A DNA stretch of 64,000 bases from an uncultured Solirubrobacteraceae bacterium (GCA_964588985.1 CAZPQW010000008.1:68509-132508), one strand, 5' to 3'; positions 1,336-37,270 are shown, counted from the first letter of the stretch. Notes: a model not told the origin generated them from the letters alone. Program-made: numbers and translations.

Positions 1336-3018
1336 CTAGAAGACGCGACCGAACCGCGTCGCGATGTCGTAAGGGTAGATGTACATGGTCATCGCTTCGA
1401 AGCGATAGGCGGCGAGCGGCTTCCCGAGCCCCGCGGGAAGCGCGCGGACTTCGATGCCGTTGGCGTCCACCACGAGGAACGTGTGCCGCCGCTGTGGGAC
1501 GTACCACGCCGGCACGTACGCCTGGAAGCCCGGGCAGAGGTTCGTGCCTTCAGGGTTTTCGCAGTCCTCCACGGGTCTGAGAAGCACGCGGTTGTGAGAG
1601 GCCCACGTCACGCCGGACGCATCACCGAAGTTGGTGTAGCCGACCTGCACGTGGTTGGCCGCGGCGATGCGGATGATGTTCTCTCCGCTGCTGGCGGTCG
1701 TCTTGGTGACGTTCACATAGTCGCTGGTCAGGCCCACGAGGCTCGCGACGAAGAACACCGACGCGCCGAGCGCGATCAGCCATCGTGTCGCCGAGCGCCT
1801 CGCCATGAGCAGGGGGATCACCGCGCCCACCGCGAAGAGGGCGGTCGCGTAATACGATTCGTGCGTCGTCGTCGGACCTTCCCCCGCTATCCAGAACGCG
1901 CCTGCCGCGCACGCCGGGGAGCTGACCCAGTAGATGATGTGAAGGGAGCGCGCGAGCTCGCCGGGCGGTCGCGAGAGGGCCCGGCGAAGGCCGGACCAGA
2001 CGAACGTGCCGGCGGTCCAGAGGCCGACGACGATCAGCGCGAGCAGCGCAGCCGACATCACCACGTCGCTCGCGATCCCCAGCGCGGCGTGCATCGGGCC
2101 CGGCGCTTCGGTTCCGAGATAGCCGTTGAAGAGCTGCTTCAGCCCCTTGAACAGCAGTTCCGCCCTGGCCGGGAGTTCCGCCAGGGTCGCGGTGTGAATC
2201 GGCGAGGGCAGCAGGAGGAAGCCTTCCGCTTTCATGATCGCCGCCGTGATCTTCTCCACCGGGATCGACACGGCCACCGTCGTCAGGGCGGATACGGCGA
2301 GCAGTCGGGAGCGCCTGTCTCGCTGTGCGGCCGCGAACAGCGCGGTGAGCGCGAGCGGGACGACGGTCGTGATCGCCAGCAGCAGATCGGAGGCGAGACA
2401 CGCGCCGACCACGACGCCCAGGATCGGCGGGACCGCGAACGTCGTCAGCCGCCGTCGTCCCTCCTCGCGCGTCAGCCAGATCAGGTACGCGCCCACCAGC
2501 GCGGTGCACGGATAGACCGTGTTGTGCGAGAACGGCGCCATGAAGAACGTCAGCGCTATCGGCGAGGCGACGACGCCGAGGAGCACCGCGAGGATCGCCG
2601 CGCGGCGGCCGGCCAGCTGCTGGACCGACCACCCCACGATCAGGGCGGTGATGAAGAACAGCAGCGTCGGCGCGACGCTCCACAGCTCCCGGTGCAGCGG
2701 CAGCTTCGCGGTCAGCAGCCCGAACCAGAGCGAGGCCCACTGCGGGGAGGAGCCCATCACCGTATGCCCGCCGGTGCCCGTTTCGACGAGCGTTTCCGGC
2801 ATCACGTATGCAGAGCCGACGCTCGGGTTCCACGCGAGTGCCGCGAGGTTATGCGGCAGTTGCGCTGCGAACACGACCAGATAGCCGGCCGCGATCGCGA
2901 ACGGGACGAGCCAGGGCAGGAGGCTTGCGTCGAGCGAGCGCGGGAAGGAGCCGTCCCGGGCGATCGCCTCCGCGTGCCCCCACGGCTCGCCGCCGACGTC
3001 AATCTTGCTGCGGGCCAA
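1336..3018 (-). CDS. Polytopic membrane protein, GT-C glycosyltransferase-like; paralogue of 2999..4735
   Basis: Many hydrophobic segments followed by a soluble C-terminal domain; shares HESYYAT, LFKGLK.LFNGYLG and YIYPYDIA motifs with the neighbour; TTG start uncertain. Confidence 0.65.
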   Translation of the reverse strand: MARSKIDVGGEPWGHAEAIARDGSFPRSLDASLLPWLVPFAIAAGYLVVFAAQLPHNLAALAWNPSVGSAYVMPETLVETGTGGHTVMGSSPQWASLWFGLLTAKLPLHRELWSVAPTLLFFITALIVGWSVQQLAGRRAAILAVLLGVVASPIALTFFMAPFSHNTVYPCTALVGAYLIWLTREEGRRRLTTFAVPPILGVVVGACLASDLLLAITTVVPLALTALFAAAQRDRRSRLLAVSALTTVAVSIPVEKITAAIMKAEGFLLLPSPIHTATLAELPARAELLFKGLKQLFNGYLGTEAPGPMHAALGIASDVVMSAALLALIVVGLWTAGTFVWSGLRRALSRPPGELARSLHIIYWVSSPACAAGAFWIAGEGPTTTHESYYATALFAVGAVIPLLMARRSATRWLIALGASVFFVASLVGLTSDYVNVTKTTASSGENIIRIAAANHVQVGYTNFGDASGVTWASHNRVLLRPVEDCENPEGTNLCPGFQAYVPAWYVPQRRHTFLVVDANGIEVRALPAGLGKPLAAYRFEAMTMYIYPYDIATRFGRVF

Positions 3019-4735
3019 GGCGCGAGGCGATGTCGTAGGGGTATATGTACATGCTCATCGCTCCCAGCCGATATGTGGCGAGCGGCTTGCCGAGGCCGGG
3101 CGGGAGGGAGCTGACCCAGCCTTCGCCGCTCACCGTCAGCAGGAAGGTGTGGCGTTCCCGGGGTACGTACCACGCCGGCGTGCTCATCAGGTAGAAGGGG
3201 CAGATGTCGGCGCCCTGTGGGTTTTCGCACGCCATCAGCGGCCTGACGGTCACGCGCCCGTGCGTGATCCACGTGAAGACCGACGTTCCGTAGCCGCCGT
3301 AGCCGACCGGCACGTTGTTCGCGCGGGCGATTCGGGTGACGCTCGCGGTGTCAGCGGCGATCCCGTTGGTTAGGTTCATGTAATTGCCCGTCAGCCCCAC
3401 GAGGCTCGCGAGGAAGAAGATCGAAGCGCCCACGGGAACCAGGATGCGGCCCAGCCGGCCGGCGGACAGCAGCAGCGGTATCACCGCGGCCACCGAGAAC
3501 AGGGCGGTCGCGTAATACGATTCGTGGAGGTCCGTCCCGCCGCCCGTTTCCGCCGCGATCCAGAACACGGCGCACACCGAGGCCGCCGACCCAACCCAGT
3601 AAACGACGTGCAGAGAGCGGGCCAGCTCATCCGGCGTCTGCGCGCCGCGCCTGCGCAGCGCCGCCCAGATGAGCCTCGCCGTGGCGAGTATCCCGAGCAC
3701 GATCAGCGCGAGCAGGGCAGCGGACATGACCACGTCGCTCGCGAGCCCCAGCGCGGGGTGAAGGGTGCCGGGCGCGGTCGGGCCGCCCAGATAGCCGTTG
3801 AAGAGGCCCTTCAAGCCCTTGAACAGGAGCGTCGCGCGTTCGGGGAGTTCCGACAGCGGTACCGCGTGGGCAGGCGTGGGCAGCTTGAGATACCCGGACG
3901 AGCGCATGATCGACGAGATCAGCGAGGACACCCCGAGCGCCACCGCCAACGTGCTCAGGGCCGACACGGCGAGCACGCGCGCACGGCGGCCCGGTTGCAC
4001 GCCGGCGAGGATCGCCGTCACGGCCAGCGGGACGATCGCCGTGGCCACGAACAGCAGGTCCGATGCCAGGCACGCGCCGACCGCCACCCCCGCGAGCGGC
4101 GGCACCGCCCAGGTCAACGCCGGCCTTCGTCCCTCTCCGCGCGCCAGCCAGACGAGGTACGCGCCGAGCAGGGCGGTGCCCGGGTACACGAAGTTGTGCG
4201 CGTTGGGCGCCATGAAGAACACGAGCGCGAACGGCGAGGCGATCACGCAGATCAGCACGGCGAGGATCGCCGCGCGTCGGGTGCTCAGGCGCGCGACCGA
4301 CCAGCCGACGATCAGGGCGGTCGCGAGGAACAGCAGCGTCGGCGCGATCTCCCACAGCTGGCGATGCAGCGGCAGCCCCGCCGTGAGCAGGCCGATCCAC
4401 AGCGACAGCCACTGCCCCGAGGAGCTGATCACGGTGTTGCCCCCGGAGCCTGAGCCGGCGAGCGTTTCCGGCAAGGCGAAGGCCGACGCGTAGTCTGGGT
4501 CCCACTGCAGCTCGGTCACGTTGCGCTGCAGGTGCACTACGAACACCACGACATACACGGTCGCGATCGCGAGCGGGAGCTGCCACAGCAGGGTGAGGAG
4601 CTTGTCTCCACCCAGCCTGTCGGCCAGGGGGCGCGCGGACCAGTGCGCGGAGGTGGTGTTCGCGACGCCTGGTGCGCCCGCCGCCTCCGACGCCAGGTCC
4701 GCGTCGGCCGAGTGTCGATGCTCACGCCACCACAT
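2999..4735 (-). CDS. Polytopic membrane protein, GT-C glycosyltransferase-like; paralogue of 1336..3018
   Basis: Multi-TM; acidic WDPD loop after the first TM; divergent from a nucleotide-sugar operon. Confidence 0.65.
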   Translation of the reverse strand: MWWREHRHSADADLASEAAGAPGVANTTSAHWSARPLADRLGGDKLLTLLWQLPLAIATVYVVVFVVHLQRNVTELQWDPDYASAFALPETLAGSGSGGNTVISSSGQWLSLWIGLLTAGLPLHRQLWEIAPTLLFLATALIVGWSVARLSTRRAAILAVLICVIASPFALVFFMAPNAHNFVYPGTALLGAYLVWLARGEGRRPALTWAVPPLAGVAVGACLASDLLFVATAIVPLAVTAILAGVQPGRRARVLAVSALSTLAVALGVSSLISSIMRSSGYLKLPTPAHAVPLSELPERATLLFKGLKGLFNGYLGGPTAPGTLHPALGLASDVVMSAALLALIVLGILATARLIWAALRRRGAQTPDELARSLHVVYWVGSAASVCAVFWIAAETGGGTDLHESYYATALFSVAAVIPLLLSAGRLGRILVPVGASIFFLASLVGLTGNYMNLTNGIAADTASVTRIARANNVPVGYGGYGTSVFTWITHGRVTVRPLMACENPQGADICPFYLMSTPAWYVPRERHTFLLTVSGEGWVSSLPPGLGKPLATYRLGAMSMYIYPYDIASRLGPQQD

Positions 4736-4959: not shown

Positions 4960-5583
4960 ATGTCACTGTCCGACAACAGTCACAGCGTCACCTACCTGTC
5001 CGCGGCCGCCGACCTGGCGTGGACGATCGAGCCATGCGACCTCGACGCGATGGCGCGGGGGCTCGCGGCGGTCCGTGAGCGCCGCGGCAGGCTGTTCATC
5101 CTCGGGGTGGGCGGTGGCGCCGGACACGCTTCGCACGCGGTCAACGACTTCCGCAAGCTGTGCGCGATCGAGAGCTACGCGCCGACCGACAACGTCTCCG
5201 AGCTGACCGCACGGACCAACGACGATGGCTGGGAGACGGCGTACAGCGCTTGGCTGGAGGTCTCGCGGCTGTCCGAGCGCGACGCGCTGCTCGTGTTCTC
5301 CGTCGGCGGCGGATCGCGCGAGCACAACGTCTCCACGAATCTGGTGCGGGCGATGGAGGCCGCACACGAGGCCGGGGCGTCGATCTACGGCGTCGTCGGC
5401 GCTCCCGGCGGCACGCTCGGGGAACTCGCCGACGTGGCGATCCGCATCGAACCGCCGGCGGCGCTGCGCACCCCTCTCGTGGAGTCGTTTCAAGCGGTTG
5501 TCTGGCACGCGCTCGTCTCCCATCCAGAGCTTGCGGTCAAAGAAGGCCACTGGGAGTCGCTCGCCGCACCCGCCAAGCCGTGA
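4960..5583 (+). CDS. gmhA: SIS-domain phosphosugar isomerase (GmhA / LmbN C-terminal domain-like)
   Basis: RLFILGVGGGAGHASH, LTARTNDDGW, LLVFSVGGGS..NLVRA; operon context. Confidence 0.85.
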   Translation: MSLSDNSHSVTYLSAAADLAWTIEPCDLDAMARGLAAVRERRGRLFILGVGGGAGHASHAVNDFRKLCAIESYAPTDNVSELTARTNDDGWETAYSAWLEVSRLSERDALLVFSVGGGSREHNVSTNLVRAMEAAHEAGASIYGVVGAPGGTLGELADVAIRIEPPAALRTPLVESFQAVVWHALVSHPELAVKEGHWESLAAPAKP

Positions 5584-6236
5584 GCGCCGGCTGGGCCTTC
5601 GCGCCCGACCGCGGTCCCATGGTGCTCGCGTCAGCTTCCCGCGAAGGTCCCGCGCGCAGCCCGCGAGCGGCGGTGTTCCTGGATCGCGACGGAGTCATCA
5701 ACGAGCTGATCGCGGACCCGATCACCGGGCGGGGCGAGTCTCCGCTGCGCGTGGAGGACGTGAGGCTCCTCCCCGGCGCCGCCGCGGCGGTCGCACTCCT
5801 CGCGCGGGCCGGCTACGTGCTGGTGTGCGTCTCCAATCAGCCCGCGGCCGCGAAGGCCACCGTATCGCTCGCAGGGCTGCGGGACGTGCACGAGCGAGTG
5901 ATCGAGCTGCTGGCCCGCGAGGGTGTCCGTCTCGACCGCTCCTATCTGTGTCCACACCATCCCGAAGGCGTGGTGGCCGAGCTCGCCGGGGCGTGCGACT
6001 GCCGCAAGCCACGCCCCGGGATGCTGGATGCGGCCTGCGACGCGCTCGCCCTCGACCGTGGCGGATCCTGGATGGTCGGAGACACCGACGCGGATATCGG
6101 AGCGGGCCTCGCGGCCGGATGTCGGACGCTGATGATCCGCAACTCGGGCAGCGCTCACAAGCGTTTGCAGGGATTCCACGCGGACGCCATCGCCGACAGT
6201 CTCATCGACGGGATCGAGCGGCTTCCCCTCGATTAA
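5580..6236 (+). CDS. gmhB: HAD-IIIA sugar bisphosphate phosphatase (GmhB / LmbK-like)
   Basis: VFLDRDGVIN, VSNQ, CPHHP..CDCRKPRPGM, MVGD; GTG overlaps the upstream stop. Confidence 0.9.
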   Translation: MSAGWAFAPDRGPMVLASASREGPARSPRAAVFLDRDGVINELIADPITGRGESPLRVEDVRLLPGAAAAVALLARAGYVLVCVSNQPAAAKATVSLAGLRDVHERVIELLAREGVRLDRSYLCPHHPEGVVAELAGACDCRKPRPGMLDAACDALALDRGGSWMVGDTDADIGAGLAAGCRTLMIRNSGSAHKRLQGFHADAIADSLIDGIERLPLD

Positions 6237-6294
6237 ACAGAGACATTCACACAAATCGTCGCTCGTTATGGTGGCGCTCGACAGGGAATTCATC

Positions 6295-7005
6295 ATGCTC
6301 GATCAGATCTCCACACGCATATTCGCCGACGGCGCCGACCTCGACGGCATCCTCGCTCTTGCCGCCGATCCACACATATCGGGATTCACCACCAACCCGA
6401 CGTTGATGCGCAAGGTGGGACTCACTGACTACGGGCGCTTCGCGCAGGAGCTGCTCGAGCGCGTCACCGAGCACCCGATCTCCTTCGAGGTGTTCGCCGA
6501 CACCGCTCCGGAGATGCGCCGCCAGGCCCACACGATCGCCTCCTGGGGAGAGAACGTGTACGTGAAGATCCCCGTCACGTCGACGACCGGTGAGTCGATG
6601 GCGCAGCTGGCGAGAGAGCTCTCCGAGGATGGGGTGAAAGTGAACGTGACCGCGCTGTTCACCACCGCGCAGGTCGAGCTGATCGCGGCGGCGGTCGCGA
6701 ACGGCGCGCCGTCGTACATCTCCGTGTTCGCCGGCCGCATCGCGGACGCGGGAGTCGATCCGATCCCGATCATGGCGCGCTCACTCGAGATCATGGAGCA
6801 GGCGCCCCACGCGGAGCTGATCTGGGCCTCGCCGCGGGAGATCCTCAACCTCGTCCAGGCAAACGAGATCGGCTGTCACATCATCACGATCACCCACGAC
6901 CTGCTGAAGAAGCTCGACAGCCTCGGCAAGAGCCTCGAGCAGTACTCGCTCGAGACCGTCCAGATGTTCCACGACGACGCGTTGGCCGCGGGCTTCACCC
7001 TCTAG
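6295..7005 (+). CDS. tal: Small transaldolase (TalC/FSA family; LmbR-like)
   Basis: FADGAD, GFTTNPT, ISFEV, VYVKIP (Schiff-base Lys), VNVT, SVFAGR; AGGGA before ATG 6295 (alternative start 6268). Confidence 0.9.
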   Translation: MLDQISTRIFADGADLDGILALAADPHISGFTTNPTLMRKVGLTDYGRFAQELLERVTEHPISFEVFADTAPEMRRQAHTIASWGENVYVKIPVTSTTGESMAQLARELSEDGVKVNVTALFTTAQVELIAAAVANGAPSYISVFAGRIADAGVDPIPIMARSLEIMEQAPHAELIWASPREILNLVQANEIGCHIITITHDLLKKLDSLGKSLEQYSLETVQMFHDDALAAGFTL

Positions 7006-7009
7006 TCGC

Positions 7010-7993
7010 GTGAGTAGAGCCTGCATCACCGGTGGCGCGGGGTTCATCGGCAGCAACCTCGCCGATCGGCTCGTCGAGCGCGGATTCGAGGTCGCGATCC
7101 TCGACGACTTCAGCACCGGGCGTCGCGAGTTCGTCACGGAGCTCGAGAACACGCCGGGCGTGCGGCTGATCGAGGGCGACGTGCGCGACATCTCCGCGGT
7201 AGAGAGCGCCGTCGAGGGCTGCGACTGGGTCTTTCACCTGCAGGCGAACGCCGATCTGCGTGGCGGCGTGGAACATCCGCGGCGCGACCTCGAACAGAAC
7301 ACGATCACGACCGCGAACGTGCTCGAGGCGATGCGACGCCACGGCGTCAGCCGGATCGTGTTCTCCTCCACCGGCTCCGTCTACGGCGAGCCGGAGGTCT
7401 TCCCAACCCCGGAGGACGCCCCCTTCCCTGTGCAGACCTCGCTGTACGCGGCGTCCAAGCTCGCCGGCGAGGGTCTGATCGAGGCCTACGCGACCGGCTT
7501 TGGCTTCACGGGCGTGATCTGCAGATTCGTGTCGGTGCTCGGCGAGCGCTACACCCACGGGCACGTGTTCGACTTCTACCGCGCGCTCAAGCGCGACCCC
7601 ACGCGCCTGCGCGTGCTCGGCGACGGCCGCCAGGAGAAGTCCTACCTGTACGTACAGGACTGCGTCGCGGCGATCCTCGCCGCGGTCGATCGCCACGGCG
7701 AGGATCCGGGCGCGCACATCTACAACCTCGGGACCGACGAAACCCTCGTGGTCGACGAGTCGATCGCGCTGATCGCCGGGCACCTCTCCGCCTCGCCCGA
7801 GATCGAGCACACCGGCGGGCGTCGGGGATGGGTCGGCGACAGCCCGCTCATCCGCCTCGACACCACGCGCATCCGCAGCCTCGGCTGGCGCCCGCAGCTG
7901 ACCATCGAGCAGGCCGTGGTCCGCACGCTCGAGTGGTTCGACGCCAACGAGTACGCGTGGGCCGAACAGGAGATCGAGAGCGCGCTGTCATGA
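7010..7993 (+). CDS. NAD-dependent nucleotide-sugar epimerase/dehydratase (LmbM-like)
   Basis: TGGAGFIG, SSTGSVYG, YAASK extended-SDR motifs. Confidence 0.9.
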   Translation: MSRACITGGAGFIGSNLADRLVERGFEVAILDDFSTGRREFVTELENTPGVRLIEGDVRDISAVESAVEGCDWVFHLQANADLRGGVEHPRRDLEQNTITTANVLEAMRRHGVSRIVFSSTGSVYGEPEVFPTPEDAPFPVQTSLYAASKLAGEGLIEAYATGFGFTGVICRFVSVLGERYTHGHVFDFYRALKRDPTRLRVLGDGRQEKSYLYVQDCVAAILAAVDRHGEDPGAHIYNLGTDETLVVDESIALIAGHLSASPEIEHTGGRRGWVGDSPLIRLDTTRIRSLGWRPQLTIEQAVVRTLEWFDANEYAWAEQEIESALS

Positions 7994-8976
7994 GCGTCAT
8001 CTTCAGCCGCGCGCCCTTGCGGATCTCGCTCGGCGGGGGCGGCACCGACCTGCCCTCCTACTACCGCGAGCACGGCGGCTTCCTCGTCTCGGGCGCGATC
8101 GACAAGTACGCCTACATGCTCACCCACACCACCTTCCAGCGGCGCTACAGGATGAAGTACTCCGAGCTGGAGGAGGTCGAGGAGATCAGCCAGATCCGCC
8201 ACCCGATACTGCGCGAGAGCCTGCTGCGCCACTGGGCCGGCAGCCCCCTCGAGATCGCCTCCGTGGCCGACGTCCCGGCCGGCACCGGGATGGGGTCCTC
8301 CGGCGCATACACGGTGGCGCTGCTGAAGGGCCTCGCGCGCGCACGCTGCACCGCGATCACCCCCGGGGACCTGGCCGAGGCGGCGTGCGAGATCGAGATC
8401 GACGTGCTCGGCGAGCCGGTCGGCAAGCAGGACCCCTACGTCGCCGCCCACGGCGGGATCTGCGCCTACACGTTCAACCCGGACGGGAGCGTCGACGTCG
8501 AGCCGCTCGAGCTGGACCCCACGACGCTGAGGCGGATGCGCGACCAGCTGCTGCTGTTCTACACCGGCGAGGCGCGCTCGGCCTCGCACATGCTCGCCGA
8601 CCAGGACACGCGTTCGAAGGCCGGGGACGAGCAGATGCTCGCCAACCTGCATCGCACGAAGGAGCTGGGTCGGCAGAGTCACGAGCTGCTGCGCGGCGGG
8701 CGCCTGGAGGAGTACGCGGAGCTGATGCACGAGCACTGGGAGCACAAGCGCGCCCGCTCGCCGGGGATGAGCGACGGCCGCATCGACATGCTGTATGAGA
8801 TCGCGCGCCGCACCGGCGCCATCGGCGGCAAGCTCGTGGGCGCCGGCGGCGGCGGGTTCCTGCTCGTCTACACGCTCAGGCCCGAGGAGACCAGGCAGGC
8901 GATGGCGGAGGAGAACGCGCAGGAGCTCGCGTTCGACTTCGAGTTCTCCGGCGCATACGCGAGCGAGTACGCATGA
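7990..8976 (+). CDS. hddA: GHMP sugar-phosphate kinase (HddA / LmbP-like)
   Basis: RAPLRISLGGGGTD, PAGTGMGSSG, GKQD, GGKLVGAGGGG. Confidence 0.9.
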   Translation: MSVIFSRAPLRISLGGGGTDLPSYYREHGGFLVSGAIDKYAYMLTHTTFQRRYRMKYSELEEVEEISQIRHPILRESLLRHWAGSPLEIASVADVPAGTGMGSSGAYTVALLKGLARARCTAITPGDLAEAACEIEIDVLGEPVGKQDPYVAAHGGICAYTFNPDGSVDVEPLELDPTTLRRMRDQLLLFYTGEARSASHMLADQDTRSKAGDEQMLANLHRTKELGRQSHELLRGGRLEEYAELMHEHWEHKRARSPGMSDGRIDMLYEIARRTGAIGGKLVGAGGGGFLLVYTLRPEETRQAMAEENAQELAFDFEFSGAYASEYA

Positions 8977-10007
8977 GCAGAGACGGCCTGAGGGTGGCCG
9001 TGCTCGGCTGCGGGCAGATCGGCGCCAAGAGGGCACAGGCCCTCGCGCCACAGGACACGATCGTCGGCTGCTGCGACCTGAACATCGCGGCTGCCGAGGA
9101 GCTCGCCGCGCGTCACGGCGCCCGTGTGTGCGCCACGCCACAGGAGCTGGTCGCGCTCGATCCGGACGTGGTGGTCGTCGCCGCCGTCCACGACCAGCTC
9201 GCGGGGCTCGTCGAGCTGTCCCTCGCCGCGGGGGCGCACGTGCTCGTCGAGAAGCCCGCCGCGATCTCGACCGCGCAGATCGATCGCCTGCTCGTCTGCC
9301 AGCGGATCAGCGGCCGACTCGTGAAGGTCGGCTTCAACCACCGCTTCCACCCCGGGATCGCCCGCGCCGTCGAGGAGGTTCATTCCGGGCGCCACGGCGA
9401 GCTGATGCACCTGCGAGCCCGCTACGGCCACGGCGGGCGCCCCGGCTACGACCGCGAGTGGCGCGCCCAGCCGGCCCGCTCGGGCGGCGGCGAGCTGATC
9501 GACCAGGGGATGCACCTGCTGGACCTCACCAACTGGATCGCCGGTCCGCTGCCGCTGCACTCCGCGCTGCTGCGCACGCAGTTCTGGGACGCGGAGGTCG
9601 AGGACAACGCCGCGCTGTTGCTCGGCGAGCCGGGGCAGCGGACCGGCCCGTGGGCGATGCTGCACGTGAGCTGGACGGAGTGGAAGAACCTCTTCTCGCT
9701 CGAGATCTACTGCCATACCGCCAAGCTCCAGATCGACGGGCTCGTGCGCTCCTACGGACCGCAGCGGCTGCGGATCTACACGATGGGACCGGAGCTCGGG
9801 CCCCCCGCGCTCGAGGAGATCCATTACTCGGCGGAGGATGGCTCGTGGGCCGCGGAATGGGAGCACTTCGCGGAGGCCGTGGTATCCGGCGACGGGCGCG
9901 CGCTGCTCGGCGATCTGCGCTCCGCGCGCGACGCCTGGGAGCAGGTGGAGGCCGCGTACGAGACCGACGTGTACGCCGACATGCGCTCGTTGGCGACGCT
10001 TCGATAG
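8973..10007 (+). CDS. Gfo/Idh/MocA family oxidoreductase (LmbZ/CcbZ-like)
   Basis: GCGQIG, HVLVEKP, VGFNHRFHP, GGGELIDQGMHLLD. Confidence 0.88.
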   Translation: MSRDGLRVAVLGCGQIGAKRAQALAPQDTIVGCCDLNIAAAEELAARHGARVCATPQELVALDPDVVVVAAVHDQLAGLVELSLAAGAHVLVEKPAAISTAQIDRLLVCQRISGRLVKVGFNHRFHPGIARAVEEVHSGRHGELMHLRARYGHGGRPGYDREWRAQPARSGGGELIDQGMHLLDLTNWIAGPLPLHSALLRTQFWDAEVEDNAALLLGEPGQRTGPWAMLHVSWTEWKNLFSLEIYCHTAKLQIDGLVRSYGPQRLRIYTMGPELGPPALEEIHYSAEDGSWAAEWEHFAEAVVSGDGRALLGDLRSARDAWEQVEAAYETDVYADMRSLATLR

Positions 10008-10020
10008 TAGAGGTCACGAG

Positions 10021-11418
10021 ATGGACGCCCCAGTCGAGACGAATCGCTCCGAGCCGATCGCCGTGGTGGGCCTCTGGCACCTGGGGAGCGTGATCGCGGC
10101 ATGCCTGGCGGACGCCGGCAACGACGTCATCGGCCTCGACCCCGACCGCGCCGTCGTCGTCGGGCTCGGCGAAGGTCACCCGCCGGTTTCCGAGCCGGGA
10201 CTCCAGGAGCTGCTCGCCGGCAACGCCTCACGCATGGAGTTCACCAGCGACCCGAGGGAGCTCGCGCGGGCGCGCTGCGCGTGGCTGACATTCGACACAC
10301 CCGTCGCCGACGACGACGTCGCGGACGTCGAATGGGTGCTCGACCAGGCGGTCGAGCTGCTCGCGCACCTGCGCGAGGACACGCTCGTGGTCGTCTCCTC
10401 GCAGCTGCCCGTCGGCAGCAGCGCGCGCCTGCACGAGCGCTGTGCCGCCGCGCGCGGCCCGGCCGGTGCGCTGCGCTTCGCGTGCGTGCCCGAGAACCTC
10501 AGGCTCGGCAGCGCACTCGAGTCGTTCCGCGAGCCCGACCGGATCGTCGCGGGGGTGCGCACCGAGGCCGACCGCGACGAGCTCGCCGAGCTGCTCGCGC
10601 CGTTTTGCTCGGAGGTGCAGTGGATGCGGGTGGAGTCCGCGGAGATGACCAAGCACGCGCTCAACGGGTTCCTCGCCACGTCGGTCGCGTTCATCAACGA
10701 GATCGCGTCGATCTGCGAGTCGGTCGGAGCCGACGCGCAGGAGGTCTCGCGCGGCCTCAAGAGCGAGCGGCGGATCGGCCCGCGCGCGTACCTAGGTCCG
10801 GGCGACGCGTTCGCCGGCGGAACGCTCGCGCGCGACATCGGCTTCCTGCGCGGCCTGGCCAAGCGCGAGGGGCTGCCCGCACACGTGTTCGCCGGAGTCG
10901 CGGACGGCAACGCCGCGCACAAGCACTGGACCCGGCGCAAGCTGACCGAGCTGCTCGGCGAGGATCTCGAGGACGGACATGACGTCCTGCGCGACCGCCG
11001 CGTGGCGATCTGGGGGCTCACCTACAAGCCGGGCACCGACACCCTGCGTCGGTCGAGCGCGATCGAGCTGTGCCGATGGCTGCTCACCGAGGGCGCCAAC
11101 GTGCGCGCCCACGACCCGGCCGTCAGTGCGCTGCCCTCGGACCTCGCGACCAGGATCGAGCTGTGCGACTCCCCGTTGGAGGCCGCCCGCGACGCGGAGA
11201 TCCTCGTCGTGTGCACGCCCTGGCCCGACTACCTCGAGGTGCCCGCTGAGGAGGTGCTCGAGGCCATGGCGTATGCGAGTGTGATCGACCCGGCGGGAGC
11301 GCTCAGCGCCACGCTCGGCCACCACCCGGGCCTGCGCTACGTGCGCGTCGGCTCGCCGTCGGAGCTCCCCGTGAGCAGGGGAACCGCCACCACGGCCGCG
11401 CAAGAGGCTCGCAGATGA
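10021..11418 (+). CDS. UDP-glucose/GDP-mannose dehydrogenase family protein lacking the catalytic Cys (LmbL-like)
   Basis: VVGLWHLG, PENLRLG, AEMTKHALN, WGLTYKPGTD; AFAGGTLARD where GxGGSCxxKD is canonical. Confidence 0.85.
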   Translation: MDAPVETNRSEPIAVVGLWHLGSVIAACLADAGNDVIGLDPDRAVVVGLGEGHPPVSEPGLQELLAGNASRMEFTSDPRELARARCAWLTFDTPVADDDVADVEWVLDQAVELLAHLREDTLVVVSSQLPVGSSARLHERCAAARGPAGALRFACVPENLRLGSALESFREPDRIVAGVRTEADRDELAELLAPFCSEVQWMRVESAEMTKHALNGFLATSVAFINEIASICESVGADAQEVSRGLKSERRIGPRAYLGPGDAFAGGTLARDIGFLRGLAKREGLPAHVFAGVADGNAAHKHWTRRKLTELLGEDLEDGHDVLRDRRVAIWGLTYKPGTDTLRRSSAIELCRWLLTEGANVRAHDPAVSALPSDLATRIELCDSPLEAARDAEILVVCTPWPDYLEVPAEEVLEAMAYASVIDPAGALSATLGHHPGLRYVRVGSPSELPVSRGTATTAAQEARR

Positions 11419-12290
11419 GCGAGGTCCTCGCCGGGCGCACCGCGCTGATCACGGGGGCAAGCCACGGACTCGGGTTGGAGATCGCGCGCGCGTATCTCGA
11501 CGCGGGCGCGGCCGGCATCGTCATCTGTGGGCGCGACCGGATCGCGCTGGAGGGCGCGCTCGGCGAGTTGAGCGAGCGGGCGGCCCCGGGCCAGACGGTG
11601 CTCGGCGAGCCGGCGGACGTTTCGCGCGCGGACGACGTCGAGCGGCTTGTGGCACTTGCGCTGGACCGGCTGGGGGAGGTCACGATCCTCGTGTCGAACG
11701 CCGGCGTGTACGGGCCGAAGGGCGCGATCGAGGACGTGGACTGGCTCGAGTGGACGCGGGCGGTGGAGATCAACCTGCTCGGCTCGGTGCTGCCCGCGCG
11801 GGCGCTCGTCCCGCACTTCCGCGAGCGTGGCTACGGCAAGATCGTCCAGCTCTCAGGGGGAGGAGCGACCGGCCCGCTCCCGGGTCTCAGCGCCTACGCT
11901 GCCTCCAAGGCGGCGGTCGTGCGCTTCGCGGAGACGCTCGCGGAAGAGCTGCGCGAGAGCCGCGTCGACGTCAACGCGATCGCGCCCGGGGCGCTCAACA
12001 CGCGGATGCTCGACGAGGTTCTCAACGCCGGCGCCGAGCGGGTGGGGGAGGACTTCTACCGGCGCGCGCTCGAGCAGCAACGCAGCGGCGGAGTCCCGCT
12101 GAGCAAGGGGGCCGAGCTGGCGGTGTTCCTCGGCTCGGCCGCGAGCGACGGCATCACCGGCAAGCTGCTCAGCGCGGTCTGGGATCCATGGGCGGATCTC
12201 CCGGCGCACGTCGCGGAGCTCGAATCGGACGTCTACACCCTGCGCCGGATCGTGCCCGGAGATCGGGGACTGGACTGGGGGGAGGTGTGA
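11415..12290 (+). CDS. Classical SDR oxidoreductase (putative NDP-sugar ketoreductase)
   Basis: TGASHGLG, SNAG, YAASK, NAIAPG. Confidence 0.85.
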   Translation: MSEVLAGRTALITGASHGLGLEIARAYLDAGAAGIVICGRDRIALEGALGELSERAAPGQTVLGEPADVSRADDVERLVALALDRLGEVTILVSNAGVYGPKGAIEDVDWLEWTRAVEINLLGSVLPARALVPHFRERGYGKIVQLSGGGATGPLPGLSAYAASKAAVVRFAETLAEELRESRVDVNAIAPGALNTRMLDEVLNAGAERVGEDFYRRALEQQRSGGVPLSKGAELAVFLGSAASDGITGKLLSAVWDPWADLPAHVAELESDVYTLRRIVPGDRGLDWGEV

Positions 12291-13027
12291 GTGCCCGCGC
12301 GGAGCCGCCTCCGGTGTGCATCCTCGCGGGCGGACGCGGAACGCGCCTCGGAGAGCGCGCCCGCGGCGTGCCGAAGCCGCTCGTCGAGGTCGCCGGAGAG
12401 CCGTTCCTGATCCACCAGCTGCGGCTGCTCGCGACGCACCGCGTGCGCGAGGTCGTGATCTGCGTCGGATACCGGGGCGAGATGATCGAGTCGCGCATCG
12501 GCATGGAGCGCTTCGGGATCGAGATCGCCTACAGCTACGACAGCCCGGCCCTGGACGGCACGCTCGGCGCGATCCGGCGTGCGCTCGCGCTGCTGGGCGA
12601 GCGCTTCCTCGTCCTCTACGGGGACACGTATCTACGCGTCGACTACGAGGCCGCGGACAGGGCGTGGCGCGACAGCGGGCTCGCGGCGCTGATGGTCGTG
12701 CTGCGCAACGATGGGAGATGGGACGCCTCGAACGTCCGCTACGAGCGCGGGCGCGTCCTCGCGCACGACAAGCAAGCCCCCACGGCCGACATGCGGTGGA
12801 TCGACTACGGCCTGGGCGGGCTCACGGCGCGGGCGCTGGAGGCCGTGCCGGAGTCCGAGTCCGACCTCTCGGCGCTCTACCGCGAGCTCGCCCGGCGCGG
12901 ACAGCTGTGCGGCTACCCGGTCGACGAGCGCTTCTACGAGATCGGCACGCCCGACGCCCTTGAGGAGACGGCGGAGTTCCTGCGCGAAAGCGCCCGCGAC
13001 GACGCTCAGGCCGCGCGCCGCGCGTAG
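12287..13027 (+). CDS. Sugar-1-phosphate nucleotidyltransferase (HddC / LmbO-like)
   Basis: ILAGGRGTRL..PKPL, VLYGDTY, FYEIGTP; GTG overlaps the SDR stop. Confidence 0.88.
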   Translation: MSARAEPPPVCILAGGRGTRLGERARGVPKPLVEVAGEPFLIHQLRLLATHRVREVVICVGYRGEMIESRIGMERFGIEIAYSYDSPALDGTLGAIRRALALLGERFLVLYGDTYLRVDYEAADRAWRDSGLAALMVVLRNDGRWDASNVRYERGRVLAHDKQAPTADMRWIDYGLGGLTARALEAVPESESDLSALYRELARRGQLCGYPVDERFYEIGTPDALEETAEFLRESARDDAQAARRA

Positions 13028-13962
13028 ACGCCACGGCGCATCGCGAGCGAGTGGCGCAGGTCGATCGAGTGGTCGAGCGACTCCGCCGGTGGCAGCGGCA
13101 GCCGTGGGCTCGACCCTCCCGCGCGCCAGCCCGCGAGCCGTCCTCGCAGCGCGAGCAGATCGCGGGAGATCCACAGGTCGCCGCACACCACGATCGCCTC
13201 GGTGACCAGCGTCCTCAGAGTCGTGGAGCCGTGCAGGAGGCCGTAGCGGCGCAGCATGTACCCGCGCCCGTAGCCCGCCTGACGACGTTGCCACGGTGAG
13301 CGATATCCGTGCGTCGCGGAGCCGATGTGGATTCCCACGGCATCCGGTTCGGCCACCGAGCGCCAGCCCGCGACACGCAGTCTGACCGCGAGGTCGAAGT
13401 CCTCCATGTAGGCGACGATCGTCTCGTCCAGGCCACCCAGCTCCTCCCACGCCGCGCGCCGGTAGAGCCCGGCGGAGCCTCCGGCGCCGAGGAACACGGG
13501 CTTGGAGTCATGCGCACGCGAGGCCGGGAGCCCCTGCAGGCGTGGGAAGCCGGCGAGGATCGGGTCTGCGGCAAAGCCCATGCCGTCGATCAGCTCCTCG
13601 CCCGGTTTGAGCATCAGCGAGCCGACCGAGCCCACGCCCGGGTCCCCTTCGAGGTGGCGGACCATTCGCTCAAGGAAGTCGGGACGACAGTCGACGTCGT
13701 TGTTGAGCAGCAATACGGCTTCGCCCGAGCCCGCGGCGACGCCCAGGTTGCACGCAACGGGGAAGCCGAGATTCTCGTCGATCTCCACGACCTGCACCGC
13801 CGGCCACTCGGCGTACAACCGCGCCCGCGTGTCGTCGGTCGAGCCGTTGTCCACCACGATCACGTGGTGCGGGATCGTCTGGGCACGCAGGTGACGCAGG
13901 CAGCTCTCGGTGAGCTCAAAGCGGTTGTAGGCGAGCATCACCACGTCGATCGACATCGGCAT
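13006..13962 (-). CDS. GT2 family glycosyltransferase
   Basis: VVDNGSTD, NLGF..ACNLG, LLLNND, YMEDFDL; start uncertain (13956/13962/13998). Confidence 0.88.
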   Translation of the reverse strand: MPMSIDVVMLAYNRFELTESCLRHLRAQTIPHHVIVVDNGSTDDTRARLYAEWPAVQVVEIDENLGFPVACNLGVAAGSGEAVLLLNNDVDCRPDFLERMVRHLEGDPGVGSVGSLMLKPGEELIDGMGFAADPILAGFPRLQGLPASRAHDSKPVFLGAGGSAGLYRRAAWEELGGLDETIVAYMEDFDLAVRLRVAGWRSVAEPDAVGIHIGSATHGYRSPWQRRQAGYGRGYMLRRYGLLHGSTTLRTLVTEAIVVCGDLWISRDLLALRGRLAGWRAGGSSPRLPLPPAESLDHSIDLRHSLAMRRGVYARRAA

Positions 13963-14185
13963 GGGGGCAATGTAGTCGCTGCGGTCCGTGTTCGCCACTA
14001 GTCAGAAACGAAGTTGTGAAAGAGGCCGGTTGCGTGAATGAGTGACAGGGCTCTCGACGGCACGGCTCTGTTCCCTGTAAACGCTGGTGTTGATCGGGTT
14101 TCCCGATTCGGCGTCGGACTGGACCGGGCGGTGAGCACGAGTCGGTCTCGACAGCCGCGCTGCAAGTGCGACGACCGCTGGTAGC

Positions 14186-15538
14186 TTGCGGGCCGTGCAG
14201 TCTCCACGTACAAGCTTGACGACGCGCACCACGTGTCGGATCTGCGGCTCGCCGCATCTGGTGCCGGTGCTATCGCTGGGTGAGCAGTACATCGCGGGCG
14301 CGTTCGCGGAGCCCGGCGGCGAACAGCCGGTCTCGCGACGCATACCGCTCGACCTGGTGAGATGCGACACGGCGCGCAACGAGAACGGCTGCGGCCTGGT
14401 GCAACTGCGTCACACCGTGCCTGGGGCCATTCTCTATCGCTCTTACTGGTATCGCAGCGGCGTCAACCGCACGATGACGCGAAACCTGCACGAGATCGCG
14501 GCTCAGGCGGAGGAGATGGTGAACCTGGGCCCTGGTGATTTGGTAATCGACATCGGCTGCAACGACGGCACGCTGCTCGACGGGTACAAGGCCTCTGATC
14601 TGAAGTACCTGGGCTTCGATCCCTCCGACGTCGGTCGCTACGCGGTCGAGAAGGGCTATGAGGTGGTGCGCGACTTCTACGCGTATGAGCACCTGCGCGA
14701 GCGGCACGTCGACCGCAAGGCCCGGATCATCACCAGCATCGCGATGTTCTATGACCTCGAGTATCCGTGCGCGTTCGTCGAAGCCGTCTCGCGGGCGCTC
14801 GCGGACGACGGTGTGTGGGTGATGGAGCTGCACTACCTGCCCGCGATGCTCGACATGAACCAGTTCGACGCGATCGTGCACGAGCATCTGGAGTACTACT
14901 CGCTCGCGGTGATCGAGCGGCTGCTGGGCGACGCCGGCCTGCGGGTCGTACGCGCCGAGCTAAACGACATCAACGGGGGCTCGATACGCCTCTTCATACG
15001 CCGCGCCAATCGCTTCGCGCCCGCGGGCGAACACGCGGAGAAACTCCAGCAGCTGCGCGTTCGCGAGTTCGAGATGGCGCTCGACGCGCCCGAACCTTAC
15101 GAGCGCTTCGCGTCGGCGACCGAAGCGGTCCGCGACAGCCTGGCGTCGATGTGTCGCACGCTCGTCGAGGAAGGCAAGACGATCCACGTGTACGGCGCAT
15201 CGACGAAGGGCAACACGATCCTCCAATACGCGGGCATCGACAGCACGCTCGTTCCCTACGCGGCCGACCGCAACCCCGACAAGCACGGCTCGGAGACGAT
15301 CGGCACGAAGATCCCGATCATCAGCGAGGAGCAATCCCGGGAGATGCGTCCCGACTACTACCTCGCGCTGCCGTGGCACTTCCTCGACGAGTTCCTCGAT
15401 CGCGAGCGCGAGTTCCTCGAGCGCGGAGGTCAGTTCATAGTGCCGATGCCCGAGGTTCACCTCGTCTCGGCGATGCCGGATGTGCAGATCGAATCGCGCG
15501 CGCATGAGGGTGGGCTCGTCTCACACACCAACTCCTGA
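14186..15538 (+). CDS. NDP-sugar C-methyltransferase (Zn-binding N-terminus, SAM domain, C-methyltransferase C-terminus)
   Basis: CRICG, C..CGLVQL, DIGCNDG, HEHLEYYS, YGASTKG, LPWHF. Confidence 0.88.
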   Translation: MRAVQSPRTSLTTRTTCRICGSPHLVPVLSLGEQYIAGAFAEPGGEQPVSRRIPLDLVRCDTARNENGCGLVQLRHTVPGAILYRSYWYRSGVNRTMTRNLHEIAAQAEEMVNLGPGDLVIDIGCNDGTLLDGYKASDLKYLGFDPSDVGRYAVEKGYEVVRDFYAYEHLRERHVDRKARIITSIAMFYDLEYPCAFVEAVSRALADDGVWVMELHYLPAMLDMNQFDAIVHEHLEYYSLAVIERLLGDAGLRVVRAELNDINGGSIRLFIRRANRFAPAGEHAEKLQQLRVREFEMALDAPEPYERFASATEAVRDSLASMCRTLVEEGKTIHVYGASTKGNTILQYAGIDSTLVPYAADRNPDKHGSETIGTKIPIISEEQSREMRPDYYLALPWHFLDEFLDREREFLERGGQFIVPMPEVHLVSAMPDVQIESRAHEGGLVSHTNS

Positions 15539-15557
15539 CCGCGATCTGACCGAGTCA

Positions 15558-16562
15558 ATGCCGATTCGCGTCGGAATCCTCAGCACATGGAACACTCGCT
15601 GCGGGATCGCGGAGTACACGCGGCACCTCGTGGACGCCATGCGCAGGCAGGGCGAAGTGGAGGTGACTGTGCTGAGCTCGCGCAATTTCGGAGAGCGCGC
15701 CCTGGCGCCGCCGGAGGATTGGGTCGAGCCCGCCTTCGACGTGCAGATCTGGCATCCCGAACACAGCTTCGATCTCGACGTCGAGACGATCCTCGATCTC
15801 GACCTCGACGTTCTCCACGTCCAGTACAGCAACCTGTTCTACGACCGCGGTCGTCTGATCGAGCTGTTGCGGCGCTTCCCGGGGGTGACGGCGCTCACCT
15901 ACCACGACAAGGGCGGCGTGCGCTCCTTCCCGTACGACCTGCCCGATCTTCTCTACGCCCACCGTGAGGATGTGGGCGTCGGGCCGCGGCGTTTCATCCC
16001 TCAGGGAATCGACCTGCGCAGGCCGGTCGTCAAGACGTTCGGACTGGGCAAGTCACGGCTGGACGTGATCGGGGAGATCTGCGATCGCAACGACTGGGAC
16101 TTCCAGCACAGCTTCGGCGAGGATCGCTGGCTCGAGAGCGAGGAGCTCTTCGCCTGGCTGAGGGACTCCGACGCGATCGTGCTGTGGTACGACGAAGACC
16201 CGCGGTCTGGCGGAAGCGCCGGCGCGCCGCTGGCCATCGGCACCCGCAGACCGGTGTTCGTCAACGACACGGAGTGGTTCAGCGATCTCCCCGAGCGCAC
16301 CTCGACGCTGCGCAAGCTTCACACTCCTGAGGAGCTCGAGCTGGCGATGCGCGAGGTGCTCGACGATCCCTACGCCGAGAGGCGCACCTGGGATCGGGTC
16401 GCCCAGACGCTGCTGAGCGACTTCCGCGCGGCGCGTTCGAGGCCGCCGATGCATGTCCCCAGGACGTGCGATCCAGTGCGGGGGCGCATCTTCGTGACGC
16501 TCGACCACAAGCCCCTTCGGCGCGTTGCTCGCCAAATGAAGTCGCTCGCACCCAGCGTGTGA
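15558..16562 (+). CDS. Glycosyltransferase, GT4/GT-B-like, compact
   Basis: GILSTWNTRCGIAEYT N-terminus, DVLHVQY, GSAGAPLAIG.RRPV. Confidence 0.65.
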   Translation: MPIRVGILSTWNTRCGIAEYTRHLVDAMRRQGEVEVTVLSSRNFGERALAPPEDWVEPAFDVQIWHPEHSFDLDVETILDLDLDVLHVQYSNLFYDRGRLIELLRRFPGVTALTYHDKGGVRSFPYDLPDLLYAHREDVGVGPRRFIPQGIDLRRPVVKTFGLGKSRLDVIGEICDRNDWDFQHSFGEDRWLESEELFAWLRDSDAIVLWYDEDPRSGGSAGAPLAIGTRRPVFVNDTEWFSDLPERTSTLRKLHTPEELELAMREVLDDPYAERRTWDRVAQTLLSDFRAARSRPPMHVPRTCDPVRGRIFVTLDHKPLRRVARQMKSLAPSV

Positions 16563-27401: not shown

Positions 27402-27422
27402 GGACTTGAGATAGTAGGGGGG

Positions 27423-28304
27423 ATGTCCGCCGAGGTCGCCGAGCGCTGGGCCAAAGCCCGCTCCTTCCACCATTCGCTCTATCCCGCCGAGCGGATCGCC
27501 GCCGAGCGCACCCAAAGCGTGTCCGTGTGCCTGCCCGCGCTCGAGTGCGCGGCGACGATCGGGCACGTCGTGGGGGAACTGGTCGCGCTGCGTGAGCTGG
27601 GGGCGATCGACGAGATCGTCGTGGTTGACGCGGGATCGGCGGACGGCACCGCCGAGATCGCCGCGCGCGCTGGAGCGAGCGTTTATCAGGAGGCCGAGTT
27701 GATGGGCTCGCACGGCCCGGTGCTCGGCAAGGGCGATGCGATGTGGCGGGCGCTGTCGGTGCTCGACGGCGAGCTCGTGTGCTTCCTCGACGCCGACACC
27801 GAGGATTTCTCCTCGCACTTCGCCACCGGCCTCCTCGGGGCGCTCGTGTGCGAGCCGGAAGTGTCGTTCGTCAAGGCGTTCTACCGCCGCCCGCTCGATC
27901 GCGGCGGTGTCTCGGACGGGGAGGGCGGCGGGCGCGTGAATCACCTGATGGCGCGACCCGCGCTCGCGCTGTTCTACCCCGAGCTCGCCGGCGTGCGCCA
28001 GCCGCTCGCCGGAGAGGTCGCAGCGCGGCGCGAGCTGCTCGAAGCGCTGCCGTTCGCCACCGGCTACGGCGTCGAGATCGCGATGGTGATCGACGTCTGG
28101 CGGCGGGTCGGGCTCGACGGGATGGCGCAGGTGGACTTGGACGAGCACCGCAACCCGCACCAGCCGCTCTCCGCGCTCACGGGGATGGCCACGACCGTGC
28201 TGGGCACGATCGCGCGGCGCGCGGAGCAGGACGGGCGCCTGCGCGACGTCGACGTTCCCGCGCTCGTCGAACGCCCCGCGCTCGCGAGCGTGTCGGTGGC
28301 GTGA
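27423..28304 (+). CDS. gpgS: Glucosyl-3-phosphoglycerate synthase
   Basis: SVCLPA, GKGDAMW, FLDAD, GGRVN, QPLAGE, GYGVEI, HRNPHQ. Confidence 0.88.
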   Translation: MSAEVAERWAKARSFHHSLYPAERIAAERTQSVSVCLPALECAATIGHVVGELVALRELGAIDEIVVVDAGSADGTAEIAARAGASVYQEAELMGSHGPVLGKGDAMWRALSVLDGELVCFLDADTEDFSSHFATGLLGALVCEPEVSFVKAFYRRPLDRGGVSDGEGGGRVNHLMARPALALFYPELAGVRQPLAGEVAARRELLEALPFATGYGVEIAMVIDVWRRVGLDGMAQVDLDEHRNPHQPLSALTGMATTVLGTIARRAEQDGRLRDVDVPALVERPALASVSVA

Positions 28305-29450: not shown

Positions 29451-29454
29451 CCAG

Positions 29455-33029: not shown

Positions 33030-33032
33030 CTG

Positions 33033-37241: not shown

Positions 37242-37270
37242 CGTGGCCACGATCGGGCATCCTTCCAGCA

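Follow-up and report, generated by a model that had tools for sequence, protein, structure and literature searches.

A nine-gene, transaldolase-containing nucleotide-sugar operon in a Solirubrobacteraceae genome, with a probable role in making an octose for the cell envelope

The window analyzed here is a stretch of 64,000 nucleotides, with a G+C content of approximately 69%, from the genome of an uncultured Solirubrobacteraceae bacterium (GCA_964588985.1, CAZPQW010000008.1:68509-132508), in which positions 4960-13027 are filled by nine co-directional, mostly overlapping genes of the + strand, referred to here as g1 to g9. Start and stop codons overlap by 4 bp at the g1/g2, g4/g5, g5/g6, g7/g8, and g8/g9 junctions, and the gaps are of 4 nt at g3/g4, 13 nt at g6/g7, and 31-58 nt at g2/g3. 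The G+C content of the third codon positions is 0.86-0.88 in the operon genes in which it was measured, and a simple scan of the + strand, which was uninformative overall for promoters and terminators, found no terminator-like site inside the operon. The best reading of this arrangement is that the nine genes represent a single operon for a transaldolase-primed nucleotide-sugar pathway.

The families were called by profile scans of Pfam and NCBIfam, which agree, gene by gene, with the tightly coupled operon of nine named families described in an earlier account drawn from the DNA alone (the sequence-only reading), as do the overlaps and short gaps. The first gene, g1 (4960..5583, +), encodes a SIS isomerase that is a distant relative of GmhA (Pfam SIS_2; NCBIfam gmhA 43.8 bits vs. 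a cut-off of 209), and is followed by g2 (5580..6236, +), a GmhB-like HAD-IIIA phosphatase (Pfam Hydrolase_like/HAD; NCBIfam GmhB PRK08942 125 bits vs. 178), in which the HAD-SF-IIIA model passes its own cut-off, and for which 5580, 5619, and 5673 are all candidate starts. The third gene, g3 (6295..7005, +; alternative start at 6268), is a short “staph-type” transaldolase (TAL_FSA 151 bits; TIGR02134 322 bits vs. a cut-off of 282), while g4 (7010..7993, +) is an extended-SDR NAD epimerase/dehydratase (166 bits for Pfam Epimerase; in NCBIfam, it comes closest to GalE, with 149 bits, short of the cut-off of that model), and g5 (7990..8976, +) is a GHMP sugar-phosphate kinase (GHMP_kinases_N and _C; NCBIfam HddA 128 bits vs. 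600). These genes are followed by g6 (8973..10007, +), a Gfo/Idh/MocA NAD(P) oxidoreductase recognized by Pfam only, g7 (10021..11418, +), a nucleotide-sugar dehydrogenase homologue with three UDPG_MGDP_dh domains (TIGR03026 267 bits vs. a cut-off of 190), and g8 (11415..12290, +), a classical SDR and proposed ketoreductase (adh_short 155 bits). The last gene, g9 (12287..13027, +), is a sugar-1-phosphate nucleotidyltransferase (NTP_transferase 64 bits), whose NCBIfam matches, to MurU (100 bits), glucose-1-phosphate cytidylyltransferase (81 bits), and HddC (74 bits, cut-off 300), are all below their cut-offs. The translations contain the motifs DRDG and a CPHH...CDC loop of Cys and His residues in g2, GGAGFIGS and YAASK in g4, PAGTGMGSS in g5, TGASHGLG and YAASK in g8, and GGRGTRLG in g9.

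Other genomes were scanned with the transaldolase only, through a six-member alignment headed by a copy from a Streptomyces plasmid, and the best 80 of at least 597 matching stretches were compared with the window (these loci are cited by their L numbers), with g1-type SIS genes being called at an identity of at least 45%. The 80 loci represent 17 named phyla, and contain a g1-type SIS gene in 63 cases, a HAD gene in 64, one or the other in 72, a GHMP kinase in 48, and a nucleotidyltransferase in 40. The median distance between the transaldolase and the SIS gene is 593 nt, and the SIS gene is present in 46 of the 53 loci that have at least 5 kb on both sides of the transaldolase. The trio of transaldolase, SIS, and HAD genes, together with the kinase and the nucleotidyltransferase, is found in at least 16 phyla, from the Actinomycetota and Acidobacteriota to the Paceibacterota, and in a MAG (metagenome-assembled genome) of the Dormiibacterota (L011, 9380-10693), a single frame fuses an N-terminal HAD phosphatase to a C-terminal transaldolase. 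The module is real and widespread, and the distribution supports the conclusion that the transaldolase is a conserved member of the pathway in many phyla. In a quick tree of the transaldolases, in which most of the deep branches are poorly supported, three copies found beside unrelated genes for sugar uptake or breakdown (in Ligilactobacillus, Treponema, and Granulicatella) are all placed on the same side of a branch supported at 90% in the Shimodaira-Hasegawa approximate likelihood-ratio test (SH-aLRT).

All nine families are clustered in eight other loci, of at least five phyla, that is, a Lawsonia plasmid (L001), a Rhizobium chromid (L003), two loci of the Chloroflexota (L016, L044) and two of the Solirubrobacterales (L023, L061), an unclassified genome (L034), and a Paceibacterota MAG (L042). 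The closest of these loci, L023, on the chromosome of a Solirubrobacteraceae MAG, has a transaldolase 89% identical to g3 and retains the gene order from orfA to orfC, the flanking genes described below. The loci of Lawsonia (L001) and Rhizobium jaguaris (L003) have the nine families in other orders, with identities of 31-63% to the window proteins. A tblastn search of plasmids also recovered g6-type and g3-type genes a few kb apart in plasmid 3 of Lawsonia intracellularis and two Rhizobium megaplasmids, and the records of the plasmid collection with a g1-type SIS gene are the five with the transaldolase module (5/5), which represent only two lineages.

The content of the module varies among close relatives in a stepwise fashion, from the core only (SIS, HAD, transaldolase, kinase, and nucleotidyltransferase, in L022 and L075), through the core with the epimerase (L036), with the epimerase and the Gfo protein (L072), and with the epimerase, the Gfo protein, and another SDR (L012, L051), or with the Gfo protein and a g8-type SDR, without the dehydrogenase (L049), to the full set (the window, L023, and L061, with L050 being cut at its start). 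Variation of this type is typical of variable surface-sugar loci. A second type of module is found in L071 (8801-19938) and 12 similar loci, mostly of the Pseudomonadota, and includes SIS, HAD, and transaldolase genes, two epimerases, an HldE-like protein, a distant Gfo protein, and a dehydrogenase homologue with GGNLERD (Asn for Cys), as well as RmlD-like and GMD-like proteins, a methyltransferase, and an N-terminal piece of a transketolase. The HldE-like protein is domain-swapped, with the adenylyltransferase first, and scores 143 bits, in comparison with an HldE cut-off of 521. As a rule, the Pseudomonadota make ADP-heptose for their lipopolysaccharide. A DNA search of Escherichia coli genomes at distant similarity, with the enterobacterial module L079, for an O-antigen of known structure returned no match.

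The core enzymes g1, g5, g2, and g9 share the four reaction types and folds of the GDP-D-glycero-D-manno-heptose pathway (isomerase, anomeric kinase, terminal phosphatase, and nucleotidyltransferase: GmhA, HddA, GmhB, and HddC), but they lie far under the four curated heptose equivalog cut-offs of NCBIfam, none of which is reached. Similarly, the SIS proteins linked to transaldolases (n = 58, including g1) match the GmhA models weakly, with a best E of 9e-18. While the solved structures nearest to g1 are those of GmhA, g1 is 49-83% identical to the 57 other transaldolase-linked SIS homologues, with a mean column identity of 64% in the family, and the family profile (alignment A4) has SVGGG..E.NVS.N, an altered and longer loop, opposite the STSGKS.N of the solved GmhA chains (g1 residues ~112-127). 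In GmhA, the substrate phosphate is bound by this region. These sequence comparisons support the view that g1, g2, g5, and g9 would not be the standard heptose enzymes. The operon also differs from the GDP-heptose pathway in its conserved and integral transaldolase, and in its tailoring by a Gfo/Idh/MocA protein and a Cys-less dehydrogenase homologue, whereas the known tailoring of heptoses is by C4 dehydrogenases, cupin epimerases, and 4,6-dehydratases.

The transaldolase itself retains the Lys of VKIP, the Glu of SFEV, and the Phe of SVFAGR, all invariant in the transaldolase alignment (A1), a set that distinguishes a transaldolase from a fructose-6-phosphate aldolase. In these residues and in its score above the curated cut-off, g3 is like the short transaldolases of TIGR02134, but unlike the housekeeping enzymes of the family definition, g3 and its copies in at least 63 other genomes are found within a nucleotide-sugar cluster. 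An Atlas search with g3 recovered only generic transaldolase clusters.

The description of g7 as a homologue of UDP-glucose dehydrogenase in the sequence-only reading stands with regard to its three domains and its TIGR03026 score, but not with regard to the catalytic Cys, which is replaced by Thr. It aligns end to end with the solved UDP-glucose dehydrogenases (214 bits), with GGTL opposite their catalytic GGSC, and shares with the UDP-glucose and GDP-mannose 6-dehydrogenases not only the three domains, but also the Lys and Asn of EMTKHALN and the Asp of GGTLARD. The Thr268 at the position of the catalytic Cys is invariant in 46 of the 46 aligned sequences, and GGTL is present in nine of the nine close homologues found in the loci, with the Cys being kept in only 3/25 of the dehydrogenase homologues seen there. 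A second Cys-less lineage, with GGNL, accompanies transaldolase, SIS, and HAD genes in 13 further loci, mostly of the Pseudomonadota. An acid would not be expected as the product of g7, given that the oxidation of a primary alcohol in two steps, as far as the acid, depends on this Cys.

A g7-type gene is always accompanied by g6- and g8-type genes (10/10 loci, with the window counted), and the named relatives of g7 are from the Solirubrobacteraceae, which, together with the close match to L023, places the bacterium of the window in the Thermoleophilia (Actinomycetota). The g6 protein belongs to a distinct subfamily, with 355 representatives at E<=1e-30, and some of the database proteins listed join the g6 type to SDR, GHMP, HAD, methyltransferase, nucleotidyltransferase, SIS, and GT2 (family 2 glycosyltransferase) domains; some of these joined proteins may be the product of read-through of overlapping genes, which would demonstrate adjacency in either case. 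Homologues of g4 with identities of 54-77% are found in L001, L003, L023, L034, and L061, and homologues of g8 (46-79%) lie beside the g6 and g7 types in L001, L003, L016, L023, L034, L042, L044, L050, and L061.

The closest parallel to this set of families is the octose pathway of the lincosamides. All eight families, R, N, P, K, O, M, L, and Z, are also found in the window, one each, in a co-directional block, which bears out, at the level of the family, the claim of the sequence-only reading that the set is the same, in comparison with Table 2 of PMC4351081 and Table 1 of PMC12945683. Those two papers give LmbN as the octulose-8-phosphate isomerase, LmbP as the kinase, LmbK as the phosphatase, LmbO as the guanylyltransferase, LmbM as the epimerase, LmbL as the dehydrogenase, LmbZ as the oxidoreductase, and LmbS as the aminotransferase, while LmbR is described in PMC5854111 as a transaldolase that forms octulose 8-phosphate from ribose 5-phosphate and either fructose 6-phosphate or sedoheptulose 7-phosphate. 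The conversion of GDP-octose to GDP-lincosamide is attributed to LmbM, LmbL, CcbZ, and CcbS.

There are also clear differences. The lincosamide pathway has a C6 aminotransferase (LmbS/CcbS), whereas the window operon has none, and a classical SDR, g8, stands in its stead. The order of steps reportedly established by Wang et al. in 2020 is 6-epimerization, 6,8-dehydration, 4-epimerization, and 6-transamination. The lincosamide isomerase and oxidoreductase are fused to a carrier protein, unlike the window proteins; a 422-residue relative of g6 (P0133) that was considered as a CcbZ-like fusion was rejected, given that its tail is of low complexity and without a carrier domain. The lincosamide cluster contains genes of the LmbT/V/C/D/E/F type and resistance genes, which are absent from the window frames scanned, and it is an antibiotic cluster of Streptomyces, whereas the window is from a different host, with GT2 and Wzx-like neighbors. 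Searches of the PDB with g1, g3, g6, and g7 recovered no Lmb or Ccb sugar enzyme.

The neighbors of the operon provide the context for its product. The Pfam scan covered 46 reading frames (9 + 16 + 21) and most of the window, with the segment at 28.4-31.9 kb and some short frames lying outside it. Converging on g9 is a GT2 glycosyltransferase (13006..13998, -; Glycos_transf_2 73 bits), a candidate transferase for the product, whose homologues, 64-66% identical, adjoin the module in L017, L025, L032, L049, and L061. This is followed by a sugar C-methyltransferase-type protein (14186..15538, +; Methyltransf_14 162 bits, with Methyltransf_13 and _23), with an 83% identical homologue 3' of the module in L023, which may represent a further tailoring step, in which case the final sugar would be C-methylated. 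The next gene, orfC (15480..16562, +), encodes a soluble protein, the N-terminus of which resembles GT4 weakly (Glyco_trans_4_4 E 0.005, a lead only), and has a 78% identical homologue in L023, also after the module, while the frame at 16466..18067 (+) encodes a polytopic membrane protein with 13 hydrophobic segments that is weakly similar to the Wzx/MOP flippases (NCBIfam Wzx_EPS 41 bits vs. 800), with no Pfam match, and homologues with 35-38% identity near the module in L036, L049, and L061. An FkbM methyltransferase and a hydrolase lie further downstream.

On the other side, divergent from g1, are orfA (1336..3018, -) and orfB (2999..4735, -), two membrane proteins with 9-10 predicted segments and a C-terminal soluble part. 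These are paralogues, with 57% identity, and form a syntenic pair in L023. No Pfam or NCBIfam family was found for either protein, and an Atlas search with orfB recovered unnamed actinobacterial clusters, the nearest named cluster having PMT_2 on only 15% of its members, while an AlphaFold2 model of orfB based on four sequences (predicted local distance difference test of 41) was unusable. They may be GT-C-like transferases. Upstream of orfA are the C-terminal part of a class-III aminotransferase (3-686, +), cut by the window edge, which is not of the sugar (DegT) type and is the only aminotransferase in the window, and a GNAT acetyltransferase (687-1322, +), with no link being seen between either of these genes and the sugar operon.

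The remaining frames scanned are housekeeping genes, including fumarase, succinyl-CoA ligase, sulfate assimilation, acyl-CoA carboxylase, methylmalonyl-CoA mutase, a helicase, and a LigD domain. The helicase (25062-28160, -) has approximately 1030 residues, with DEAD, Helicase_C, Hrq1 winged-helix, and MrfA zinc-binding domains, and the LigD domain is a stand-alone primase-polymerase domain (37220-38308, +). There is also a small Fic/DOC protein (29449-29835, +) and a gene of the D-arabinono-1,4-lactone oxidase family (32796-34367, +); a gene of this same family lies beside the transaldolase, with no module, on a plasmid of Streptomyces sp. 3211 (L002, 13616-14854), probably by coincidence. 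No second transaldolase was found in the scanned frames of the window. The 37 flanking frames scanned contain no non-ribosomal peptide synthetase, adenylation, carrier, condensation, thiol-transfer (mycothiol- or ergothioneine-related), pyridoxal-phosphate (PLP) S-functionalization, or resistance families, as the sequence-only reading had stated for the amino-acid, condensation, thiol-transfer, and resistance genes, and its glycosyltransferases and flippase are represented by the GT2 and, with a weak match, the Wzx-like protein. This supports its view of the surroundings as being of the surface-glycan type rather than those of an antibiotic cluster.

Given this, the operon would make a nucleoside diphosphate (NDP)-linked higher sugar, probably an octose, for an envelope glycan of this Solirubrobacteraceae bacterium (Actinomycetota), a reading for which we estimate a probability of roughly 0.55. 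The transaldolase g3 would move a three-carbon unit from fructose 6-phosphate or sedoheptulose 7-phosphate to ribose 5-phosphate to form octulose 8-phosphate, in the manner of LmbR, which g1 would isomerize to octose 8-phosphate (LmbN-like), before the phosphorylation of C1 by g5 (HddA/LmbP-like), the removal of the terminal phosphate by g2 (LmbK-like), and the formation of NDP-octose by g9 (HddC/LmbO-like). In the tailoring steps, g4, of the LmbM-like family, would act as an epimerase, and g7, of the LmbL-like family, would probably oxidize a secondary hydroxyl of the side chain, at C6, given that it lacks the Cys on which the second step in oxidizing a primary alcohol depends, while g6, of the LmbZ-like family, and g8 would complete a dehydration and reduction, or an epimerization. 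Since the lincosamide aminotransferase is replaced here by the proposed ketoreductase, g8, a hydroxy sugar would be formed, which may be an 8-deoxy-octose, rather than an amino-octose. The transfer of this sugar would fall to the convergent GT2, perhaps together with orfC, and the Wzx-like protein would flip the lipid-linked intermediate. We infer from these comparisons every substrate in this scheme, as well as the number of carbons, the nucleotide used, and the acceptor.

The chain length of eight carbons is probable on the basis of the LmbR precedent and of reasoning. The conserved association of the transaldolase with a distinctive isomerase and phosphatase across many phyla, including one case of fusion, argues that it makes the substrate of its own pathway, rather than simply supplementing the pool of sedoheptulose 7-phosphate, as do the failure of the core enzymes to reach the heptose cut-offs and the parallel set in the Pseudomonadota, despite their ADP-heptose. 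Sedoheptulose 7-phosphate is supplied by transketolase, and the route to more of it through transaldolase requires erythrose 4-phosphate, which is scarce. The LmbR-type use of the abundant ribose 5-phosphate thus favors octulose over a supply of sedoheptulose, according to this pentose-phosphate reasoning. An envelope glycan, rather than an antibiotic, is favored by the GT2, the Wzx-like protein, the housekeeping surroundings, and the distribution of the module, which extends to a Paceibacterota MAG and the plasmid of an intracellular pathogen.

A number of observations weigh against this reading. The resemblance of the window proteins to the Lmb and Ccb proteins is at the family level only. 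A search aimed at CcbZ as a carrier-protein fusion found 122 longer relatives of g6, with no PP-binding domain among the matches listed, and one aimed at LmbN, with a partial g1 query, found none by name among the longer proteins listed, although both of these negatives are weak, given that the searches were word-based and that the listings cover only the best 120. None of the 80 top-scoring transaldolase loci, out of at least 597, is from Streptomyces lincolnensis or any other Streptomyces, and lmbR, assuming that it is a member of this subfamily, would therefore be no closer than ~49% to the Streptomyces query. The transaldolase of the Streptomyces plasmid, which is in no module, nests among the module-linked ones in the poorly resolved tree, and 8/80 loci, two of which are short contigs, have neither a SIS nor a HAD gene within 10 kb. 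Two long loci of the Solirubrobacterales (L017 and L032, ~8850-12750) share the GT2, transaldolase, epimerase, and GHMP kinase with the window, at identities of 66-81%, but a lax threshold also failed to reveal any SIS or HAD gene within 10 kb, and these genomes may have a split module. A g6-type gene with no g7-type partner is present in eight loci (L012, L041, L047, L049, L051, L069, L072, and L080), in one of which, L047, the end of the contig may hide a g7-type gene, and the LmbL- and LmbZ-like pair of the sequence-only reading is therefore not obligate in general. Of the components of a Wzx/Wzy-type locus, the window has the GT2 and the weak Wzx match, while neither an initiating phosphoglycosyl transferase nor a polymerase was recognized in it. 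Finally, the best named matches of g1, g2, g5, and g9 are heptose enzymes all the same, the TIGR02134 family is defined on the housekeeping transaldolases of the pentose-phosphate pathway, and a secondary C6 alcohol is also present in heptoses, so that the loss of the Cys cannot distinguish seven carbons from eight.

These last three points are shared by the best surviving alternative, which we regard as unlikely, but the one to be taken most seriously, that is, that the operon makes an NDP-heptose derived from D-glycero-D-manno-heptose, with a modification at C6 or C4, and that the transaldolase only boosts the supply of sedoheptulose 7-phosphate. In this case, g1, g5, g2, and g9 would be divergent forms of GmhA, HddA, GmhB, and HddC, with g4, g6, g7, and g8 epimerizing or modifying the heptose. 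The GmhA structures nearest to g1, the annotation of TIGR02134 as an ordinary transaldolase, the absence of the Cys from g7, which fits the oxidation of the secondary C6 hydroxyl of a heptose equally well, and the existence of the core-only loci are all compatible with this alternative. It is less easily reconciled with the distance of the four core enzymes from the heptose cut-offs, or with a transaldolase that is tied to a g1-type SIS gene in 63/80 loci of many phyla and fused to the phosphatase in L011. The literature listed on heptose gene clusters mentions transaldolase solely in a general genome paper, and the Pseudomonadota, which are generally known as makers of ADP-heptose, carry a separate transaldolase set with the domain-swapped HldE-like protein. 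It can also be reasoned that a transaldolase is a poor means of raising the level of sedoheptulose 7-phosphate.

A different acceptor or chain length, such as nine carbons from a hexose 6-phosphate, or a product other than a polymer, such as a solute or the head group of a glycolipid, appears improbable. The sequences do not fix the acceptor, g1 and GmhA have different phosphate loops, and no initiating transferase or polymerase was recognized, but a lipid-linked glycan is indicated by the GT2 and the Wzx-like protein nearby, and the one pathway known biochemically in which a transaldolase precedes a GmhA-like isomerase (PMC5854111) yields eight carbons. The weakest alternative, a sugar for a secreted secondary metabolite (lincosamide-like or another glycosylated antibiotic) instead of an envelope polymer, is very improbable indeed, for while the only characterized pathway with this set of families is that of lincomycin and celesticetin, and C-methyltransferase-type and FkbM methyltransferases lie nearby, the scanned frames hold none of the families of such a cluster, from adenylation, carrier, and condensation to mycothiol or ergothioneine, PLP S-functionalization, and resistance, the GT2 and Wzx-like genes are adjacent, the module is found in small genomes (the Paceibacterota MAG L042) and on the plasmid of the intracellular Lawsonia, and its gene content varies among close relatives as in surface-glycan loci.

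The preferred reading, of an octose for an envelope glycan, has broader implications. To our knowledge, straight-chain octoses made through a transaldolase are known only from the lincosamide antibiotics. No literature linking a gene set of this type to a cell-surface glycan was found in the openly accessible sources, and a prior description may exist in subscription journals or closed supplements, which were outside the scope of the search; the literature that was found on octulose or octose 8-phosphate and GDP-octose concerns the lincosamides, the metabolism of plants and parasites, and heptose clusters with no role for a transaldolase. The sequence-only reading had the lincosamide-type module redeployed for the cell surface, but its wide distribution suggests the reverse direction, with the envelope module being the older and commoner form. 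Tentatively, and with somewhat less confidence than in the reading of the operon itself, the transaldolase, SIS, and HAD genes, with the kinase and the nucleotidyltransferase, may be proposed as an unrecognized and widespread NDP-octose pathway, in which case eight-carbon aldoses and their deoxy forms would be common in bacterial envelopes, and the lincosamide sugar would be a late recruit. If NDP-octose is indeed made, a whole class of sugar nucleotides would have been overlooked in the envelopes of abundant bacteria of soils and sediments, with Lawsonia, a pathogen of pigs, also carrying the genes on a plasmid, and this would bear on the analysis of glycans, on recognition by phages and the immune system, and on the origin of the lincosamide sugar, as well as providing a source of enzymes for higher-carbon sugars.

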